Notes under the pieces: generated by a model
What the model was told of the DNA's origin: nothing
What the model saw: the letters and a program-made list of their open reading frames with translations, nothing else
Database searches by the model: none
Assembly (NCBI GenBank): GCA_963709405.1
Contig: CAVPXM010000053.1
Location: 32,001 to 96,000 of the forward strand
Source: an uncultured Nitrososphaerales archaeon
GTDB lineage: Archaea; Thermoproteota; Nitrososphaeria; Nitrososphaerales; Nitrososphaeraceae
Length of the DNA: 64,000 nt
Reading direction: 5' to 3'
Part shown: piece after piece, positions 1 to 10,576 of the stretch
Layout: each line of letters opens with the position of its first letter
Numbering within the stretch: position 1 is the stretch's first letter
Position numbers and translations under genes: made by a program

Positions 1-79
1 ATCTTTGTCTAATATTAAAATAATTCTGATTAAAATACGATAATTACCTTAATATCACTCAGTAAAAGTACTATACAGA

Positions 80-1343
80 TTGCACTGGAAGGATACACTG
101 CCTGACTGGTATATCAAAGAATATGGATATCAACCAAATATTAACATAGGCACGTCCGGTCATGTTGACCATGGAAAGACTACTCTAGTAGAGGCTATAA
201 CTGGGGTTTGGACAAGCGCACATAGCGAGGAATTAAGGAGAGGCATTACTATTAAGGTGGGCTATGCTGACGCAGCTTTTTATAAATGCCCACAGTGTCC
301 CCCGCCTGATTGTTACTCTACTAATCCAATATGCGCGAATTGTGAAGGAAAAAGCGAGCTGTTGAGAGTCGTAAGTTTCGTAGACTCTCCAGGCCACGAA
401 AGCCTAATGGCAAACATGTTGTCGGGATCTGCTCTTATGGATGGAGCAATCCTAGTCGTTGCTGCCGAACGATCGAGTTCCCCAACCTCAGACACGAGAG
501 CACATGCTTGCTCTACAGGTCCTCGGAATTAAGCAGATAGTAATTGTTCAAAATAAAGTAGATTTGACTGACCCGGAAAATGCATTAGAAAATTATGAAG
601 AGATAAGGGATTTTGTGAAGCATAGTGTAGCTGAGAGTGCTCCGATAATTCCGGTATCTGCACAGCACAAAATCAATATCGATGCCCTGATAGAGGCAAT
701 AGAGGGAACAATAAAGACTCCTGTTCGAATGAAAAATGCAAATGCAATAATGCACGTCTTGCGCTCATTCGATGTGAACAAGCCTGGAATTAGAATAAAA
801 CAGGTCAAAGGAGGAGTCATAGGAGGAGCTTTAATTCAAGGCGAATTTAATGTAGGCGACGAAGTTGAGATTCGACCTGGCTTCTTCGACGAAAAGAAAG
901 GCAAATACGAGCCGATTAATTCTACTCTCGCGACATTGGGTACAGGAGCCGGCTTGGTAGAAAATGTGAAACCAGGTGGACTCATTGCTCTTGGTACTAA
1001 ATTGGATCCAACCTTTGTGAAGAGTGATTCCCTGATCGGCTCCGTTGTTGGGAGGCCGGGAGACTTACCTAAAGATATTGAAGATATATCGGTGGAAGTG
1101 CACCTTTTTGATACCGCGGTAGGTACTCAAGAATTGGTTAAGGTTGATCCCATCAGAGTGAAGGAACCATTGAGATTAAATGTAGGGACAGCAACCGCTC
1201 TGGGAACGGTTGCAGGTACCAGAGATGACAAAGTAGAGATAAGATTGAAGAAACCTGTCTGTATGATGCCTAAGAGCAGGGTAGCTATTAGCAGGAGGAT
1301 AACAGACAGGTGGAGATTAATAGGAGCTGGCATAGCTTCATAA
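80..1343 (+). CDS. eif2g: Translation initiation factor aIF2 gamma subunit (split by an apparent +1 insertion at ~466-467)
   Basis: [18 protein letters not shown], zinc-knuckle cysteines, DSPGHE, NKVD and C-terminal RWRLIGAG. Removing one base in GCTGCCGAAC joins ORFs 80..532 and 459..1343 as [12 protein letters not shown]. Confidence 0.95.
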
Positions 1344-1686
1344 GAAAACATATATTCTCACTCAATGATACAACACCTGACGTAAGATATGTTACGCAAG
1401 ATCAGACAGCATTTCAGGTTTTCAAACCCCTTAAAGTTCCAGGCTGGCTTCTCTCCTCTAGGTCATAGCCAAGATACGCTTACTTATGAATCTCTATTTT
1501 AGAAATTAAATATTTCAAACAAAACTGGTATGTATCGCTTTACGCGTGGAGTAGCATTTATCAGCCTTTCCAAATATTTTTTGCAACATCTCTGGTAACT
1601 CATAATAAATCAGTTTGTCTTCGGATAGCATCGGCTCAGTTTTATGGGAAGGTTTTTAATCTAGAATCAGTCCGTCATAAAGGATA

Positions 1687-2787
1687 ATGAAGGTTCTCGA
1701 TATAGCGAAAACAAAAGTCCTCAGTCTTGATCCTGAAGAGACGGTAGGCAAGGCGTTGAGTCTAATGTATGAAAACAAGATTCATCAAATTCCGATTATC
1801 GACACTGACTCCGTATACAGGGGTATGATATTCGCAAAACAATTTCTAACTGTAAATGCTCTACCACACTCTAAAGTCAAGAGTTTTATTAGTAATACTC
1901 CCTCACTTGATGAAAGTGACGACGTTGAAAAATGTGTCCAACTAATGGTCGTCACTGGAAATAGGGCCTTACCACTGCTTGAAAGTGGAAGACTTACAGG
2001 CCTACTCAGTGAGATTGATATTCTTACGATTTCAGATTTTGGACATGCTATCGTAGACGAAGTGATGTCTGGAGCAATTGTGATCGAAGAACAGACAGCT
2101 CTAGGCAATGCATTGTCAAAGATGCGTCGATATAATATATCACGTCTTCCGGTTATCACTCCAAATGGGATTCTTGTTGGTATTATTAATTCGCTAGACA
2201 TAGCTGAGGTCATTTCCACGCCAATAGAAAGGTCTACGAAGTCTAAGGGAATCGGTGGCTTGGTTGCTATCAGAGATCTTAAAGTGAAATCCATCATGAA
2301 ACGCCCGATTTCTGTTGAAAGGGGTACAAGAGTGAATGATGTCGTAGCCCATCTCAAAAATAGTGAAGAGATTGTTGTTGTTGGGGATAAGAGGCCTATT
2401 GGAATCATTACTCCAAAGGATATCTTGGAACTAATTCTTCCTAGGATGAACAAACCTACGGTCCATGTGGCCCATCTAGATGACGAAAATGCCCGATCAG
2501 AAATCGAGATTCAAATGCACAAATTTTTAGATAAAATTCGGGGAAAAATGGGAGATATTCACCTAGTAGTAGTTTACGCTGATAAACACAAGACTCGTAA
2601 GTATTCTATGCGTGCAAGACTAATCACAACTACAGGAGTAATCGATGCAAAATGTGTTGCATTCGATCCTTTAAGCGCATGTAAAGGAATGATAGCCAGA
2701 CTCGATAGGCGGATAAAATCTGAACATAGCCAAAAGGTCAGAAATAGGCAGCACGCTAAATCGGCGAGAGGTTATGAATTAGAATAG
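1687..2787 (+). CDS. Four-CBS-domain protein with C-terminal HPF/RaiA-like domain (candidate ribosome hibernation factor)
   Basis: Two CBS pairs (IHQIPII, NRALPLL..GLLS..DI, ISRLPVI..GII, IGIITPKDI). The last ~110 aa show a beta-alpha-beta-beta-beta-alpha pattern with a basic final helix (ARLDRRIK), as in HPF/S30EA. Confidence 0.75.
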   Translation: MKVLDIAKTKVLSLDPEETVGKALSLMYENKIHQIPIIDTDSVYRGMIFAKQFLTVNALPHSKVKSFISNTPSLDESDDVEKCVQLMVVTGNRALPLLESGRLTGLLSEIDILTISDFGHAIVDEVMSGAIVIEEQTALGNALSKMRRYNISRLPVITPNGILVGIINSLDIAEVISTPIERSTKSKGIGGLVAIRDLKVKSIMKRPISVERGTRVNDVVAHLKNSEEIVVVGDKRPIGIITPKDILELILPRMNKPTVHVAHLDDENARSEIEIQMHKFLDKIRGKMGDIHLVVVYADKHKTRKYSMRARLITTTGVIDAKCVAFDPLSACKGMIARLDRRIKSEHSQKVRNRQHAKSARGYELE

Positions 2788-2918
2788 CGCAGATGAGGAG
2801 ATTCGAACTCCTGATCGCCTAGAGGCGAATCGGCTAGCTTTTAGCCCCGTAACTCAAGGCCGACGCATTATTATGTTCATGCTGCTCTGAGCACCGAAGA
2901 CCACTCTGCCACATCTGC
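2788..2918 (-). tRNA. tRNA-Ser(UGA) with two introns (D-loop and canonical 37/38)
   Basis: Minus strand: acceptor GCAGATG/CATCTGC with discriminator G. D arm GCAGAGTGGTC...AATGC is interrupted by ~28 nt. Anticodon arm TCGGC-CTTGAG[17-nt intron]A-GCCGA. Long variable arm TCGCC-TCTA-GGCGA. T loop GTTCGAATC. Confidence 0.9.
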
Positions 2919-3379
2919 ATGATTCATAACGTCGGCTAACTGATTATTATATGTTAACAAATTATTGATCATTTGGTATATCTAGCAAATCAGTAGTCGG
3001 CATATAACAAAGAATAGCTTAATCAAAAAGTATACAAAATAGAAATAGAAGACTGATATTGAAAAATTAGATGCAGGCATTTGACAATCATGTATTCCAC
3101 ATAAGTGGTCGGTGATATATATAGGATTAAGTTCAATATAGGTAAATCAAAAACCCGCCGACAGTAGGAGAAAAAAAGTTTTTGCAATTAATAATTTCAA
3201 TAATATGCCTGATCTGATCTGATCTGGTTTAACATGATCTAGCATTAGATACTTGAAATGTTAGTTCTCTTTATGTGGAACGTATGTTGTTCAAAATAAT
3301 TCTGAACCTTAAAATCTATATACAAAAGAAGTGGAGAATAATACAAACAATTAATAATTGATCCTTTACCAATTATTTA

Positions 3380-3442
3380 TTACTTTTTTGTCTTTTTTTC
3401 TACCTTCTTAGCAGATTTAGCTGCTTTCTTCTTTGCTGCCAT
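3380..3442 (-). CDS. 20-aa Lys/Ala-rich basic microprotein MAAKKKAAKSAKKVEKKTKK
   Basis: Clean ATG..TAA ORF below the ORF-track cutoff. 10 of 20 residues are Lys. An archaeal TATA/BRE-like element lies ~28-40 nt upstream. Confidence 0.65.
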   Translation of the reverse strand: MAAKKKAAKSAKKVEKKTKK

Positions 3443-3469
3443 ATTCAAAGATATAAAATAAAGAATTCG

Positions 3470-3483
3470 TATTTAAGTTTTTT
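3470..3483 (-). promoter_or_regulatory. BRE/TATA promoter of the basic microprotein
   Basis: Minus strand AAAAAA-CTTAAATA, 28-35 nt upstream of the ATG at 3442, the typical spacing for short-leader archaeal mRNAs. Confidence 0.5.
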
Positions 3484-3538
3484 ATAACACTAACAAATCG
3501 ACGCTTTTCTGAAAGTTTATAATTTGGTTATTCTCGAA

Positions 3539-4207
3539 TCAGTCCTTGGGGAGAATCTTCGTTTCACAAATTTTAACAAGATTACTAAAGGTTACTGCAT
3601 CTTTTTCAGAGCCCACAATTGTTCCATAATGCATAGGTATAACAAGTTTCGTTGGTCTTATAAGTTCGTTTGTTGCTTTTGCCGCCTCTTCTGCAGTCAT
3701 GACATATGTTCCAGATACCGGCACCAAGGCAATATCTGGTCTCATGAATTCCATTTCTGGGATGATATCCGTGTCACCAGCATGATATAGTCGATATTTG
3801 CTTCCTACAATTATAAAGCCCACCTTATTATCTATCTTGGGATGGAAACTCTTGTTGGTATTATATGCGGAAACAACCTCTATTGGCACACCTTGAATTG
3901 TCAACATGTCACCTGGCACGACTCCTTTCAGTTCATTTGGAAGATCAGTTAACTTTTCAATACATTCCTGCGCGGCTAATATACTGGTATTTGCATTTGT
4001 GATTTCATTCAAATCCTCTGGACTCAAATGATCAAAATGTGCATGTGAAATTAGAACTATATCCGCATCATGGGCATTTTTTTTGGATTCACTCAACCGG
4101 TAAGGATCGATATAAACAGTTTTCTCCTCGTTATGATTATTCATTAATATTATTTTGAATCCATCATGGCCAAGCCATGACAGCCGAATGGAATCATATT
4201 CTAACAT
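3539..4207 (-). CDS. Metallo-beta-lactamase fold hydrolase (UPF0173/UlaG-like)
   Basis: WLGHDGF, IDPY, SHAHFDH, YHAGDT and IPMHYG motifs. Confidence 0.9.
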   Translation of the reverse strand: MLEYDSIRLSWLGHDGFKIILMNNHNEEKTVYIDPYRLSESKKNAHDADIVLISHAHFDHLSPEDLNEITNANTSILAAQECIEKLTDLPNELKGVVPGDMLTIQGVPIEVVSAYNTNKSFHPKIDNKVGFIIVGSKYRLYHAGDTDIIPEMEFMRPDIALVPVSGTYVMTAEEAAKATNELIRPTKLVIPMHYGTIVGSEKDAVTFSNLVKICETKILPKD

Positions 4208-4240
4208 ATCATCTCTTGAGATGCTTTTTAATTTAAAGGT

Positions 4241-4630
4241 TTAATATTGGATATCATTAGCTACTATCAAGCGATTTTTGCTTAGTGTAAATACAAGGAT
4301 TTTATATTGAATTAACTTTCTCTTTAGAACGATATCCAACGTTGCAGCCGCACATCTATTGGTCAAAGCATATTCAACTATCGCATCATCTACAAGATGA
4401 GAATGTGTAAATTTAACTATTTCAAATTTGGAAAGAGCAATTTTAACTGCAGTTCTAGCTGCCATGGATCGTTTTGGTCCTGACATCTTCTGTAAGTGCT
4501 TTAATTCATCCAGTACAATATCTGGAACTAAGAAATTCAACTTACCCAATTCGGCCTCAATTGTATCCAATTGTTTTATTGGATTAGAAACGAGGACCAT
4601 AAGAAAACTAGTATCGCAAATGACCTTCAT
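4241..4630 (-). CDS. PIN-domain nuclease (Fcf1/Utp24-like)
   Basis: VICDTSFLM, VPDIVLDEL, VDDAIV and ATLD acidic PIN motifs. Confidence 0.85.
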   Translation of the reverse strand: MKVICDTSFLMVLVSNPIKQLDTIEAELGKLNFLVPDIVLDELKHLQKMSGPKRSMAARTAVKIALSKFEIVKFTHSHLVDDAIVEYALTNRCAAATLDIVLKRKLIQYKILVFTLSKNRLIVANDIQY

Positions 4631-4839
4631 GATTAGTACAATACAATACTAATTAGTGATAGGACATATATTCTATGAAGATAACAAGAAGTAAAATTCA
4701 ACGGTTCATGAATTTCATCTTTGATAGTCATGATACTACTCAGGCAAATCAATAACTGTATGAACGTTACGGACATAGATATAGCACCTTAAACCAACCT
4801 GACTATTATCCATTGCAAAAAATATAAGTTAAAATTGCA

Positions 4840-5388
4840 TTGCAAATAACTTGCCACACAAGCCTATTGTTTAGAGGAGCATTTATTGGTCGGTTTCAAC
4901 CCTTACATCTGGGCCATCTGGCCACTATAAAGTATGCGCTACGTGGTGTACATGAGCTTATAATTGTAATTGGTAGTGCTCAAAAGAGTCATGAATCAAA
5001 AAATCCGTTCACGGCTGGCGAGCGGATCGAGATGATAAGAGATTCATTGCAGGCAGACCGTGAAATTAACATGGATAAAATATTTTTGATCCCTGTCCCT
5101 GATATTGATATACATAGTCTGTGGACTCATCAGGTAGACCTTCTGGTTCCAAGATACAACGTGATTTTTACCAATGATATATTTACAAGACAATTATACA
5201 TCGAGAGGGGGATCACTGTAATAGAACCCGCAATGTACAGGCGAGAAGAATTTTCTGCCACCGAAGTAAGAACTAGGATAGCAAATGGGCAGGAATGGAA
5301 ACAATTAGTCACTCATCAAACTGCCAAAATTATTGAAGAGATAGGAGGAATTGAACGAATACGCCAGCTTTATAATCTTGCCCAATAG
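4840..5388 (+). CDS. nadM: Nicotinamide-nucleotide adenylyltransferase
   Basis: FIGRFQPLHLGH, GSAQ, NPFTAGERIEMI, SATEVR. True start may be TTG near 4867. Confidence 0.93.
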   Translation: MQITCHTSLLFRGAFIGRFQPLHLGHLATIKYALRGVHELIIVIGSAQKSHESKNPFTAGERIEMIRDSLQADREINMDKIFLIPVPDIDIHSLWTHQVDLLVPRYNVIFTNDIFTRQLYIERGITVIEPAMYRREEFSATEVRTRIANGQEWKQLVTHQTAKIIEEIGGIERIRQLYNLAQ

Positions 5389-5617
5389 TGAATATGGCAT
5401 TTTTGAATATCAGATCGTAGGCCACAATCTCATTATCTCAATTAACTGCATATATTTATAAAAATGTATTAATAATGATATATAATTCTGCAAATATTTA
5501 GCCCTTATAGAAATACTTTGCCATAGTCTTAACAATATATTCAATCTGCTTCAGAATTTGTTTGCTCATCAAAGAAAATGTATTTCTATTTGATAAGTCG
5601 ATATACTATGCATACCA

Positions 5618-6034
5618 TTGAAATCGAAACCTGGTCTTTCAAATAGAAAAACTCGAGAACTCGAAAACACGACTCAAACAATTATTCCTAATAGTGATTC
5701 ATGGTTTACCGACTTGCAAAAGCTGTCTAGTGACGAGTTGGTACGCATGTATAACACTATTAAAAGTAGTGATTATGAGTTCGCAAAAGATGCATGGTAT
5801 AACCCGCTGGAAATCGACAAGAGATGTCCTATCATGGTTGCCAAAGGATATAGAACGCCCGATACTCCGGATAAGATGATCGAATTTCAAGATACAGCGA
5901 AGACACTAGAACATGAATTTCGTGGGTTTATAGATGCATGGGACTTTGGCGTTATATCAATACATGACATTGAAACAGCTATATTATACCTCCTTGAATG
6001 TGGAAGCATAGAAATCAGGGAATATTCTGCGTAG
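5618..6034 (+). CDS. Hypothetical protein
   Basis: 138-aa ORF with protein-like composition. No motif recognised. Confidence 0.5.
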   Translation: MKSKPGLSNRKTRELENTTQTIIPNSDSWFTDLQKLSSDELVRMYNTIKSSDYEFAKDAWYNPLEIDKRCPIMVAKGYRTPDTPDKMIEFQDTAKTLEHEFRGFIDAWDFGVISIHDIETAILYLLECGSIEIREYSA

Positions 6035-6162
6035 ACGAGAACGCTGAGTTATTAGCGAGACTAGGTACAGGGGGCTCTCCCAGTAAGTAAAAATAAACTT
6101 CAAAATCGAGTAGCTCAAAAGTAGGAATCCATATATGGGAGGTTGTGTTATGACCGGAAGAA

Positions 6163-7540
6163 GTGGGATCGGTAGGATACAAAGGAAAAGCTTCTGAACT
6201 ACTCATCAAATATGGTATCAAAATAGGAGAGAGTGTTAATATTCACACTAGCAGTGGAAAATATTCAGGGATCTTGCTTCCTCGTTATGAATTATTCGAT
6301 AACAATCACGTTGTTATAAAACTAAGGAATGGCTACAACATTGGTATAGATCTGACAAAAATTAAATCAATTGATAAAATAGATATTGGACCTCAGGATG
6401 GTATACTTTTTGGCAGAACTACTTTGGATGATATAGATCAACCTACAGAGCGTCATACCCATATTGATGAACCTAGAGGTGAACGTACACTTCCTAAAGT
6501 TGCACTTATCAGTACAGGTGGTACCATAGGCAGCAAGATTGACTACAGGACCGGAGGTGTTACCTCAGTTTTATCTGCGTCTGATCTTTATGTATCAGTC
6601 CCAGAAATTTCTAGATATGCTTCAATCGACACCGAAATGTTACTAAATGAATATAGCGAAAATTTGAGGCCAGAGCATTGGACTCTCATGGCAGATAATA
6701 TCCTAGAAAAGCTTAGATTGGGTACATATGATGGGATCATTTTGTCACACGGAACTGATACCATGCATTACACTGCTGCCTGCTTTAAGTTTCGCACTTC
6801 ATCACATCCCCATACCGGTCATATTAACGGGGGCTCAAAGATCATCTGATAGACCATCTTCTGACGCCGCGCTTAACTTGATAGGAGCGACAAAGTTTGC
6901 TGTGAAATCCAAATTTTCTGGAGTCTTTATTGTGATGCATGCCGACGCCTCTGACAACTTATTAGCTTGCCACCTAGGTACCCGAGTTCGAAAAAACCAT
7001 ACTAGCAGTCGCGATGCATTTGAATCAATTGATATAAGGCCTGTAGCGTTAATCAATGGGGAGAAGGTCGAGATGCAGCAGAACCCCGGACTAGAATTGC
7101 GAAGACGTGGAGAAACAACTCGCTCTCCATATAAAACGTCTTTTGATAAACATGTGATTTTGCTTAAATATTATCCTGGATTTGACCCGAAGCTCATTTT
7201 ATATCTGGTACGAAGCGGTTACAAGGCCATAATCCTCGAAGGAACCGGTCTAGGTCATATAAGCAATGAGTGTTTCGCACAATTAAGACAAGCAATCGAG
7301 TCAGGAGTGATGATATTTATGACCTCTCAATGTATCTGGGGGCGAGTGAATATGAACGTGTATGATACAGGAAGAGACTTGCTCGGGATGGGGGTCATAC
7401 CCTTATCAGATATGACACCAGAAACAGCATTGGTAAAGGCAATGTGGCTACTGGCAAATATCCAAGATAGTACGAACATTAAAAAAATGATGCAAGAAAA
7501 CATGTGTAATGAGATATCTTCTATTAGCCCTATTCAATGA
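6163..7540 (+). CDS. gatD: Glutamyl-tRNA(Gln) amidotransferase subunit D (apparent +1 insertion at ~6780)
   Basis: KLRNGYNIG, ISTGGTI, SENL, HGTDTMHY, TGAQRSSDRPSSD, EGTGLGH. Frames join as YTAAALSF after removing one base in GCTGCCTGC. Confidence 0.95.
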
Positions 7541-7579
7541 GATAAGAAATAAAAGACTTGAATAACTTTCAGATTTCAA

Positions 7580-9488
7580 GTGTTAATAGATTCATTAGAA
7601 ATTAACGTGAAGGTGGGTTTGGAAATTCACCAACAACTGGCGACAAGAACTAAGCTCTTCTGTGACTGCCGCTGTGACGAGAATGAAGAATATAGTATGT
7701 TCCTTTCTCGTAGTTTAAGACCTGCTCAGAGTGAGCTAGGAATAATCGATCCCGCTGCATTATTTGAATTTAAAAAGATCCAGTCTGTAAAATACCATGC
7801 TGCTACCAGAACAAGTTGCTTGGTAGAAGCTGACGACGAACCACCACATCATGTAAATGAAGAAGCGTTTGAATCGTCTATAATTTTCTCAATGGCACTC
7901 AATTCTGACATCATCGACGAAATTCACGTAATGCGTAAAATAGTCATAGATGGATCAAATACTAGTGGGTTTCAGCGAACTATGTTAATTGCTACAGGTG
8001 GTTATATCGAGATCAATGGGAAGAGGATTGGCGTTCAAAGTGTATGTCTTGAAGAGGATGCGAGCGAAATTGATATCAGACAACACCAAACTAAGAGAAT
8101 ATGGACTGGATAGATTAGGAATACCATTAGTAGAGATTGCTCTTGAACCCATAACCGGTAACGCCAACGAAGTAATGCAACTTGCATTGAGTTTAGGAAG
8201 ACTAATGCGGGCAAGCAAACGAGTGGCTCGAGGCATCGGAAGCATACGACAAGACGTCAATATCTCTATAGAAAATGGACATGTAGTAGAAATAAAAGGT
8301 GTTCAAAAATTAGAACAATTAGTCAAAGTAATAAAATATGAAGCTATCAGACAACACGGCCTGATAACTATCGCGAATAAACTAAAAAACGAGAGAGGGA
8401 TTACAGAAGTAAGAATTGAAAATAGAATAGCAGACGTTACAGATATCCTAAGAGAATCATCTTCTAAAACAGTCATTGAATCACTTAAGGATCAGAACAC
8501 AGTATATAGAGCTGTTAAAATAGATGGTTTTGCTGGAATGCTCGGATATGAACCACATGACCATGTTAGACTGGGTAAGGAATTGAGTCATATTGTTCGA
8601 TTTTACGGGATTGGTGGAATATTTCACTCCGATGAGCTTCCAGGGTATGGCATATCAAGGGAAGACGTTGATGACATAGAAAAAAAGCTTGGAATAGACT
8701 CCAAGAATGACGCATTCATAATAATTGGTGGGCCACCAGAAAAGGTGTCTCATGCAATAGAATCTGTGATTCAGAGGCTAAAGATTGTACCTGAAGGAGT
8801 TCCTGCGGAAACACGAGCAGCGACACAAAATGGTGAAACCCTGTACATTAGGCCCAGACCTGGTTCAGCTAGAATGTACCCTGAAACTGATGTCGCTCCG
8901 ATCACAGTTGATAGTGCACTTATTGATTCACTACGTCATAAGATTCCACGACCGATAAAAGAATATACAAACGAGCTAATAAACAGATACGGATTAAACG
9001 AAAAACTTGCCGAGGAGATCTTTGATTCACCATATCTAAACCTCTTTGAAAAGATCGTTTCATCGACGAGAATATCACCTACATTTATCGCATCGAAATT
9101 GACAGAGGATATTACAAATCTAGAGAGACAAGGATACGGTAGTTCTATTTTGACTAATGATAGGCTGTTAGAAATCTTTAACGAGCTTGAGCACGGAAGG
9201 ATCGCAAAGGAATCGGTAACCTTACTGTTCCAGAAACTAATGACTCACGAGATCGAAAATCTAGATGAATTCAAGTCTAGAATTAAAACAATTAGTGAGC
9301 AACAGCTAGAGGAGGAAATTAATACTATTTTATATAAACACCTTGATGTTATAAAAGAGAAAGGGATGGATTCTATCGGTATGCTAATGGGCAGGACTAT
9401 GACTGTCCTGAGAGGTAGGTCAGATGGCCAGAAAATTAACGCAATTCTAAGGTGCAAATTAGAACAAATTGTGTCTTCGATGGAGTAG
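7580..9488 (+). CDS. gatE: Glutamyl-tRNA(Gln) amidotransferase subunit E (apparent +1 insertion at ~8062)
   Basis: KVGLEIHQQL, KLFC, DGSNTSGFQRT, LEEDA|AK, LDRLGIPLVEI, RQDVNISI, RMYPETD. Adjacent to gatD. Confidence 0.95.
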
Positions 9489-9559
9489 GTAAAAGAACTT
9501 GAAAAACTAGTTGCAGATTATGATGCATAATTGTAATTGTGAGTAGCAGTCATATACTA

Positions 9560-10576
9560 TCAATGACTATTCATATTTTTGTAAGACACATCAAATTTTT
9601 TGGTTATGCTGCCATAGAGATCATATATCTTTCCGCCCGCATAATCGCTTACATAGTTCCACAGATAATGGTTTATTGGTAGGGATTTAAACGCTAGCTT
9701 CTGTCTTTCATCCAACGAATCATATACCATTTTACCTATTACTATCTGATCTGGCTTTGCCAGTCCAGTCATTTTTGTAGTTATATTGATAGTATAACCG
9801 AGGGCATCGAGGTGAGCCTTTTTCATTATTACCTTTCCATTCCTGTTATACGTATCCCATCCATATTGTACAACTACATTTTCACCAATATCTATTCCAA
9901 TCCTAACCTTAAGCTCTGGATAATCATATTGGTTCAGTATGGGGTTTATTCCTTCGCGATTTACCTTGATCATCGAGCATGCACAATTGACAGCATTGAG
10001 ACATGGCAAATACGCATTCGCTTTATAGCTTTCATCCGTATCATAATCAGGGACAACAAAGAATGCCAAAATGGCATCACCTACATATTTTAAAATATAT
10101 CCACCATAGGCTTGAATCAACATTGACATTTCTTGGGTAAACGCCTGAATTATCGTAGCCAACCTGTGTATAGGAAGCATCATAGAGAGCCTAGTTGATT
10201 CAACAAGATCGATATATAAAATTACAAATGTTACTTTGGATCCTTCATAACTTTCTAAAATATTCTGAGTCTCCTCCATAGAAATATTAAACTGAGGTTT
10301 TACTTTTAGGGCCTGCCAGATTCTAGACTGCGCCTGTTTAATGGCTAGGTCCACATTGACTATCGTATCAAGGTACAGTCCACTCAGTAATGGAGCATCT
10401 CTTAGCCTTTTCTTGGAAGTCCTTTTATTCGTCTTGTGGCTATTAGCTTCATTTATTATATTCATGACATTTTCTTGATTCAAATCCATTTGTAATGCTA
10501 TTGTGTCTGGCGATATCCCAGACTTGTGCAAATTAATTATGGTTTCCCTTTGTTCTAGTGATATATTTGATATCAC
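9560..10576 (-). CDS. Class III adenylate/guanylate cyclase with N-terminal HTH-like segment
   Basis: YIDLVEST and KYVGDAILAFF (two catalytic Asp), RIGIDIGE, DALGYTINITTKM. N-terminal ISLEQRETIINLHKSGISPDTIALQMDL. Confidence 0.88.
   Translation of the reverse strand: MISNISLEQRETIINLHKSGISPDTIALQMDLNQENVMNIINEANSHKTNKRTSKKRLRDAPLLSGLYLDTIVNVDLAIKQAQSRIWQALKVKPQFNISMEETQNILESYEGSKVTFVILYIDLVESTRLSMMLPIHRLATIIQAFTQEMSMLIQAYGGYILKYVGDAILAFFVVPDYDTDESYKANAYLPCLNAVNCACSMIKVNREGINPILNQYDYPELKVRIGIDIGENVVVQYGWDTYNRNGKVIMKKAHLDALGYTINITTKMTGLAKPDQIVIGKMVYDSLDERQKLAFKSLPINHYLWNYVSDYAGGKIYDLYGSITKKFDVSYKNMNSH

Follow-up and report, generated by a model that had tools for sequence, protein, structure and literature searches.

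A 64,000-nucleotide stretch of DNA from an uncultured archaeon of the family Nitrososphaeraceae (GenBank assembly GCA_963709405.1, contig CAVPXM010000053.1, positions 32,001 to 96,000, hereafter the window) harbors a micro-gene of 20 codons that very probably encodes a genuine protein, judging from the way its sequence varies among relatives. The micro-gene occurs widely in two ammonia-oxidising archaeal families. Its product, MAAKKKAAKSAKKVEKKTKK, consists of 10 Lys (50 %), 5 Ala (25 %) and a single Glu among its other residues, has neither Arg nor Pro and carries a net charge of +9. By analogy with known lysine-rich proteins, we give about an even chance to the view that this would be a free, disordered and abundant polyanion binder of low specificity, i.e., a minimal peptide resembling the tail of histone H1. 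The free-standing form of this known Lys/Ala-rich polycation theme is new and unnamed in the libraries searched.

Anatomy and surroundings of the micro-gene

The coding sequence occupies positions 3383..3442 on the minus strand and is marked by a frame-specific excess of synonymous changes and by indels of whole codons. It opens with an ATG at 3442-3440, continues for 20 sense codons and is closed by a TAA at 3382-3380, immediately followed by a second TAA at 3379-3377; with the bases that precede it, the minus strand is ...GTGTTATAAAAAACTTAAATACGAATTCTTTATTTTATATCTTTGAAT-ATG GCA GCA AAG AAG AAA GCA GCT AAA TCT GCT AAG AAG GTA GAA AAA AAG ACA AAA AAG TAA TAA. Relatives keep only the first of these tandem stops (3377..3382), as TAA or TGA. 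An in-frame TTG at 3446..3448, situated at about the predicted transcription start, would yield a product of 22 aa (ORF 3380..3448). Its position is taken by an ATG in seven other genera, which gives rise to MKM/MTM-AAKKK forms (ATG-AAA-ATG in loci L009-L014, ATG-ACA-ATG in L016).

Upstream of the ATG lies a BRE/TATA-like element, AAAAAAC-TTAAATA (AAAAAACTTAAATA; 3470..3483, minus strand), a putative promoter by its likeness to the archaeal BRE/TATA consensus. In archaea, the transcription start lies some 25 nt downstream from the centre of the TATA box. Since the centre of the box is 31 nt upstream of the ATG, this rule predicts an mRNA that is leaderless or has a leader of about 5 nt. Of the 16 family loci, 15 have TTAAATA or TTATATA, after an A-rich stretch, aligned some 27 nt ahead of the start codon; in the remaining one (L007) the box is shifted or degenerate. 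The initial annotation had described a half-Lys ORF of 20 aa with tandem stops and a BRE-TATA at canonical distance, and every described item is correct on the minus strand. At the level of sequence, the conserved TATA-like box also speaks for its proposal that the ORF has a promoter of its own.

From the stop codon onward the minus strand can form a hairpin of 15 pairs (3343..3380; -9.9 kcal/mol, z = -2.7 versus shuffles). Over the 16 loci the 3' hairpins have a mean z of -2.0 versus shuffles, with z <= -1.4 in 13 of them, and their stem sequences vary from genus to genus. A pyrimidine-rich tract ending in TTTT follows (TATTCTCCACTTCTTTT; 3324..3340, minus strand), presumably an archaeal oligo-T terminator. 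A TTCTCCCCTTCTTTT-like block ending in CTTC-TTTT is aligned in most family loci amid surrounding sequence that is not alignable. With RNA start and end predicted from these signals, the micro-gene would be transcribed as a compact unit of about 125 nt. A sigma-70/terminator scan of 3200-3600, a tool not applicable to archaeal promoters, returned one terminator-like match, on the opposite strand and inside the ORF.

As initially noted, the micro-ORF is located between an MBL gene and a tRNA gene. The former (Lactamase_B_3 in Pfam; 3539-4207, minus strand) ends 97 nt upstream of the ORF and is itself preceded by a PIN_9 gene on the same strand (4241-4630). The tRNA gene, about 130 nt long with at least one intron, lies some 460 nt downstream on this strand (2787-2918); it is detected by ARAGORN -i and as a sub-threshold Rfam tRNA match (18.2 bits, the gathering score being 29). 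Default ARAGORN over 1-10000 reported no tRNA, and Rfam at gathering threshold gave 0 matches in the whole window. Anticodons assigned by ARAGORN -i differ among the orthologues of this tRNA. A protein of 366 aa with four CBS domains is encoded convergently with tRNA and micro-gene on the plus strand (1687-2787), and a Pfam search at E <= 10 leaves its C-terminal ~116 aa unmatched.

The PIN-MBL-microORF order holds only within the family of the window, and the tRNA is found downstream in this genus only. Four genera of the same family have the MBL gene without the micro-gene after it, and in the sister family the gene occurs in several unrelated contexts and is preceded there by a conserved block, about 50 nt long, that belongs to it. 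Such varied neighbourhoods indicate that the PIN-MBL synteny reflects local history and no functional link, so that a role in ribosome dormancy, which had been suggested on account of the neighbours, loses its footing.

Three essential genes on the plus strand (80-1343, 6163-7540, 7580-9488) are each split mid-domain into two overlapping ORFs: eIF2-gamma within GTP_EFTU (profile 3-114 and 106-186), GatD within Asparaginase (1-101 and 95-191) and GatE within GatB_N (1-126 and 124-276). These splits look like assembly indel errors, or pseudogenes.

Nearly identical DNA occurs in soil, peat and rhizosphere metagenome runs. An RNA-labelled library (X15) contains a contig of 1051 nt from a related strain that extends over 3010-4063 and comprises the ORF, the MBL gene and intergenic DNA; because it spans several genes, it is no sign of a micro-gene transcript. 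Contigs from three other RNA libraries (X17, X19, X20) are confined to the MBL gene (3574-3924), leave the ORF uncovered and are uninformative about it either way. Several short contigs from RNA libraries cluster at the 3' part of the tRNA gene (2783-2834), and one contig skips 51 nt at 2735-2787. The Lys codons of the micro-gene (6 AAG, 4 AAA) do not depart meaningfully from those of the genome (0.41 AAG), and codon bias therefore gives no sign of high expression. Transcription, translation, abundance and every binding partner of the peptide are what we infer.

Coding signature, paralogues and distribution

Taken alone, neither the ORF nor its TATA string is remarkable. ORFs of at least 20 aa are common (120 in the first 8 kb of the window), and with as many as 2 mismatches allowed, the window has 4 copies of the promoter string where 3.09 are expected. 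The composition is rare: K+R reaches 45 % in only 18 of the 43,752 ATG ORFs of 14-45 aa in this genome of 4.83 Mb and 37.3 % GC, and two of these 18 begin with MAAKKK. It is conservation that makes the ORF more than a chance occurrence. A 201-nt query over the ORF, run against 41 genomes, matched 17 of them: the window's own, 15 of the 24 other genomes of the same family (6/6 in the same genus), where the match covers 3489-3370 at 76-88 % identity, and a single sister-family genome with a short match. An in-frame Lys/Ala ORF of 16-25 aa is present in all 15 family genomes, so that the ORF initially described from the window alone does recur in relatives, and start and stop are found in 16 of 16 family loci, the peptides being of the type MAAKKKAAKSAKKGEK..KK. 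As identity among the adjacent MBL proteins across genera is just 55-62 %, the micro-gene is conserved better than its neighbour.

How the family loci differ is more telling. Their alignment shows lengths to differ by whole codons only, with a start and a stop in every locus. Counted pairwise over the first 13 codons of 16 loci, codon differences are synonymous to nonsynonymous as 293:199 in frame versus 29:386 and 28:449 in the shifted frames, the nonsynonymous count being inflated by one locus (L015) that is badly aligned past codon 9. The related strain represented by the X15 contig displays a synonymous GCT>GCA change at 3410, no indels in the ORF and 4 substitutions in the 3' untranslated part. 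The synonymous excess in one frame only, the codon-sized indels and the synonymous strain change, together with the retention of start and stop, are the general marks of a protein-coding sequence and point to selection on the peptide.

Two further paralogues of 16 aa exist in the genome, which brings the number of loci in this genus to three. The copy on contig C21 encodes MAAKKKSVKKASKGKK and comes with a TATA box (AAGGCTTATATAC), a hairpin and a T-run of its own. The third, on C69 (G000:C69:92344-92459 (-), L087), has a 1-nt gap in codon 2 (ATGG-AGCA). As the same assembly splits eIF2-gamma, GatD and GatE mid-domain, this gap may be an assembly indel rather than the mark of a pseudogene. Each of the 6 other genomes of the genus has both paralogue loci, with ORFs of 16 aa of the form MAAKKK[ST][VA]KK..K.KK and again a TATA box (AAGGCTTATATA), hairpin and T-run for each locus. 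The ORFs are intact in 12 of the 13 loci aligned, namely 11 from the six other genomes and the C21 copy.

Homologues were surveyed with degenerate DNA patterns. The start pattern ATGGYNGCNAARAARAAR (M[A/V]AKKK) is found in 59 of 81 family genomes and in 14 of 18 genera, a count that includes the unpublished-flagged genomes G237 and G199 within the tallies of g11 and g8; its reversed control gave 1 match. A sample of 20 extra matches comprised 8 K-rich micro-ORFs, 5 C-terminal tails of an unrelated gene, 2 starts of long proteins and 5 that were neither. These extra micro-ORFs span four more genera: g4, with promoter and terminator as in the window gene, g14 and g12, with 15-16 aa, and g17, with 30 aa. 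Micro-ORFs were thereby verified in 13 of the 18 family genera sampled. The start pattern is absent from g2 (0/7 genomes), g5 (0/2), g6 and g10, and this patchy distribution argues against an indispensable role. Two matches in g3 turned out not to be micro-ORFs, and a recurrent MVAKKK match (L318-L320, L328, L335) was rejected as the C-terminal tail of a conserved gene (...KYFSI-MVAKKK...); directly downstream of that tail is a gene starting ...FVGSGPGDPELIT. Other searches have to be read with their limits: a profile search found 25 of the 81 family genomes, an undercount that missed known loci in G012, G013, G016 and G018, and a strict pattern (K at 4-6, 9, 12 and 13) matched 0 of 5 complete g2/g14 genomes, a zero that is a pattern artefact since g14 holds micro-ORFs of 15-16 aa outside the pattern.

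A class-wide scan matched 50 of 151 genomes, 45 of 80 in the sister family. When 30 of these loci were examined, 11 had ORFs of 14-25 aa such as MAAKKKAAAKKTTKKASKKK, in varied contexts, 2 belonged to a third family with a form of 39-41 aa, 1 was a longer repeat protein with masked bases and 16 were starts of longer proteins. Identical peptides occur under the record titles Nitrososphaeraceae archaeon, Candidatus Nitrosopolaris, Nitrosarchaeum, Nitrosopumilaceae and Candidatus Nitrosotenuis. Five sister-family loci (L024, L036, L039, L041, L042) encode proteins of 157-164 aa with a MAAKKK start, a Lys-rich tail of about 35 aa and then a conserved helical part (...PEFEKAWKEYNSAL...), with weak Pfam matches only in the one tested (L036). 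They are possibly a fused relative of the polycationic peptide theme.

Databases have little to offer on these peptides. The exact 20-aa sequence is absent from a collection of 15 billion proteins, in which 4 of 7 variants are present, all as 'hypothetical protein'. Pfam and NCBIfam searches with 13 peptides at E <= 10 produced nothing except a meaningless 5-bit match to a ValRS tail, and the family profile matched none of the PDB chains at E <= 10. Rfam 15 had no match over 3300-3500 at gathering threshold, and at E <= 1 over 2700-3560 it found only the sub-threshold tRNA. The ESM Atlas holds a 41-aa relative and 30 similar clusters (~40 aa), all unnamed; the nearest cluster with any Pfam family is HC2, at a score of 0.87 that lies below the level counting beyond a lead. 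Literature searches at the level of abstracts, with subscription papers mostly outside their reach, returned no description of such a peptide.

Look-alikes outside the class

A scan of a 185,579-species genome collection with ATGGCNGCNAARAARAARGCNGC gave at least 122 matches in at least 120 stretches. Among the matches listed, 69 start complete ORFs of up to 45 aa, 21 start longer complete ORFs and 32 leave the locus; 62 of the 69 short ORFs keep at least 70 % K/A/R beyond residue 8. The set was chosen by the pattern searched, and a short length after the match is expected by chance. Among these same listed matches, a Shine-Dalgarno-like motif lies 4-16 nt upstream in 46 of the 62, and a hairpin (dG <= -8) followed by T4 occurs within 90 nt in 32 of them. 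The titles among the matches listed include Dormiibacterota, Eisenbacteria, Reyranella, Planctomycetota, Acidobacteriota, Gemmatimonadota and Nitrospirota, as well as several candidate-phyla-radiation groups, Planktophila, and Woese-, Pace- and Micrarchaeota, and local GC rises to 0.66. An identical 18-aa peptide with synonymous differences is encoded at no fewer than 6 loci (three titled Reyranella; L179 titled Proteobacteria bacterium). Within the matches listed, the scan shows stand-alone Lys/Ala micro-genes with putative expression signals to be common in prokaryotes. Low complexity implies that homology beyond the class Nitrososphaeria cannot be claimed.

Some arrangements among these loci recur. 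Tandem pairs of Lys/Ala micro-ORFs are present in bacterial L108, L133, L157 and L212: the two copies in L108 are separated by 400 nt and have almost the same leaders and terminators, and in the other three a second K/A-rich start comes directly after the first. In two candidate-phyla-radiation loci (L123, L151) a Lys/Ala micro-ORF is placed about 70-110 nt upstream of what appears by eye to be a SecA-like N-terminus. Viral contigs furnished 16 short frames in 102 stretches. Several of these look like internal Met codons because, by eye, an in-frame coding sequence precedes them, and a stand-alone gene of the thaumarchaeal type was not seen among the 102 stretches.

A far broader proposal would make the window gene one instance of a pan-prokaryotic and essentially undescribed class of free 'micro-polycations'. 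The class would comprise stand-alone Lys/Ala genes of 15-40 codons with strong expression signals, often multi-copy, in ammonia-oxidising archaea, DPANN and many bacterial phyla. As abundant macromolecular counter-ions, their products would adjust how far nucleoid, ribosomes or polyphosphate are compacted or condensed; neither gene callers nor tryptic proteomics would detect them. We regard this proposal, on balance, as doubtful.

Proposed polyanion binding and competing readings

The proposed function starts from a micro-gene that stands alone and is probably strongly transcribed, with a putative BRE/TATA promoter, a predicted near-leaderless 20-codon ORF, a hairpin and a presumed oligo-T terminator. 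Its product would be a free, intrinsically disordered polycation of about +9 in 20 residues, disorder being predicted from composition. Acting alone, it may bind nucleoid DNA, RNA and ribosome surfaces, or polyphosphate, and would in effect reduce the Lys/Ala-rich tails found in linker histone H1, AlgP and PhaF to a minimal, domain-less form. A peptide with 50 % Lys and no hydrophobic residues or core would neither fold alone nor insert into a membrane, which excludes a folded enzyme or a membrane peptide. Within the family the N-terminal 13 residues are nearly invariant, and the C-terminal half varies in length but not in composition. This pattern, the charge density and the presence of several gene copies that each come with a TATA box and a terminator-like tract fit an abundant polyanion ligand of low specificity.

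Larger proteins supply the precedents. The Lys/Ala-rich disordered region of AlgP, of the KPAA type, binds DNA and associates with polyphosphate granules, and closely spaced lysines cause KPAA proteins to be under-counted in tryptic proteomics (PMC9239181). PhaF binds RNA in a lysine-dependent manner and activates translation (PMC12818456). These Pseudomonas proteins ('histone H1-like') share with the window peptide a Lys/Ala-rich, predicted disordered and strongly cationic character. However, they carry tails of 150-200 aa with 9-25 KPAA repeats on a folded N-terminal domain, whereas the window peptide has 20 aa, no Pro and no repeat unit, and is encoded by a stand-alone ORF with a putative promoter of its own and stops on both sides. 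Since a peptide with a charge of +9 can be expected to bind every polyanion in vitro, the analogy with AlgP and PhaF discriminates little. The C-terminal tail of linker histone H1 and chlamydial Hc2 (PF07382) are likewise alike in composition, as Lys/Ala-rich cationic stretches, but the window peptide lacks the globular winged-helix (Linker_histone) domain, is about one tenth as long and has no Pfam match at E <= 10. The initial interpretation thus stands in part: a genuine micro-gene with a conserved promoter element and a composition that fits a putative polyanion or nucleic-acid binder was rightly proposed, but the protamine-like option is unsupported, as not one of the 20 residues is the Arg that dominates protamines, and the eL41/eS32-like option fares no better for want of Arg and of any PDB chain matching the family profile at E <= 10.

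The main rival to low-specificity polyanion binding is nevertheless a ribosomal one, in which a lineage-specific ribosomal or ribosome-hibernation microprotein would sit in a defined rRNA pocket. Tiny basic ribosomal proteins of restricted lineages do exist. Among them, eL41/eS32, bTHX, bS22 and bL37 are Arg-rich, of fixed sequence and present in one copy. They have in common with the window peptide a size class (~20-35 aa), a strong positive charge and the ease with which annotation misses them. An N-terminus almost invariant across genera over 13 residues would suit a defined pocket, and abstract-level literature searches brought up no ribosome structure from an ammonia-oxidising archaeon that would show the peptide. 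In length and composition class the closest ribosomal parallel is the Ala/Lys-rich C-terminal extension of about 25 aa that uS19 of Parcubacteria carries (PMC9297842), and which lends the ribosomal reading plausibility; yet that extension is bacterial and forms part of a ribosomal protein, and in the genomes that were profile-searched the window peptide turned up in short frames only, never fused. Known ribosomal micro-proteins also contain Arg or aromatics, both missing here, and the lack of matches to solved chains is joined by a length that is free to vary (14-25 aa, or 39-41 aa in the third family), a similarly free C-terminal half, up to three paralogues per genome and a start pattern missing from all seven g2 genomes. 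Taken together, we consider a ribosomal role unlikely.

The remaining readings would place the function outside the free peptide. A cis-acting leader ORF rich in Lys codons, serving attenuation or the sensing of Lys-tRNA or translation capacity, would account for 10 clustered Lys codons followed by a hairpin from the stop and a T-run (TTTT), which is the layout of a leader peptide, and bacterial look-alikes with a Shine-Dalgarno-like site, about half of them with hairpin and T-run, are among the matches listed. However, there is no conserved downstream gene or cognate operon, the tRNA following in this genus only and varied genes in the sister family, and the ORFs downstream of the 62 look-alike loci are by eye diverse, spurious or missing among the matches listed. 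Moreover, the non-Lys residues A2, A3, A8, S10 and G14 are kept as well, with synonymous change, which argues for selection on the peptide and renders a leader ORF quite improbable. Even less probable is a small non-coding RNA with an ORF that lies in its conserved sequence by accident. A unit this short, with putative promoter, hairpin and terminator of its own, would suit such an RNA, but not synonymous excess confined to one frame, whole-codon indels, start and stop retained by all 16 family loci of the window type and by 12 of the 13 paralogue loci, and the absence of an Rfam match over 3300-3500. As for a chance ORF in AT-rich intergenic DNA, the frequency of short ORFs and TATA-like strings in the window is outweighed by conservation across genera, by the paralogues and by the coding signature, which refute it and leave it a negligible probability.

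Ammonia-oxidising archaea play a major part in nitrogen cycling, and little is known about how their chromatin and ribosomes work. The peptide is absent from the protein family libraries and would escape standard annotation and proteomics. Look-alike micro-genes in many bacterial phyla, among the matches listed, suggest a general and overlooked class of cellular polycations, of which the window gene is probably one example. In the archaea themselves, a polycation of 20 residues that is conserved better than neighbouring enzymes and present in up to three copies per genome would be a candidate for an abundant ligand of the nucleoid, RNA or polyphosphate.
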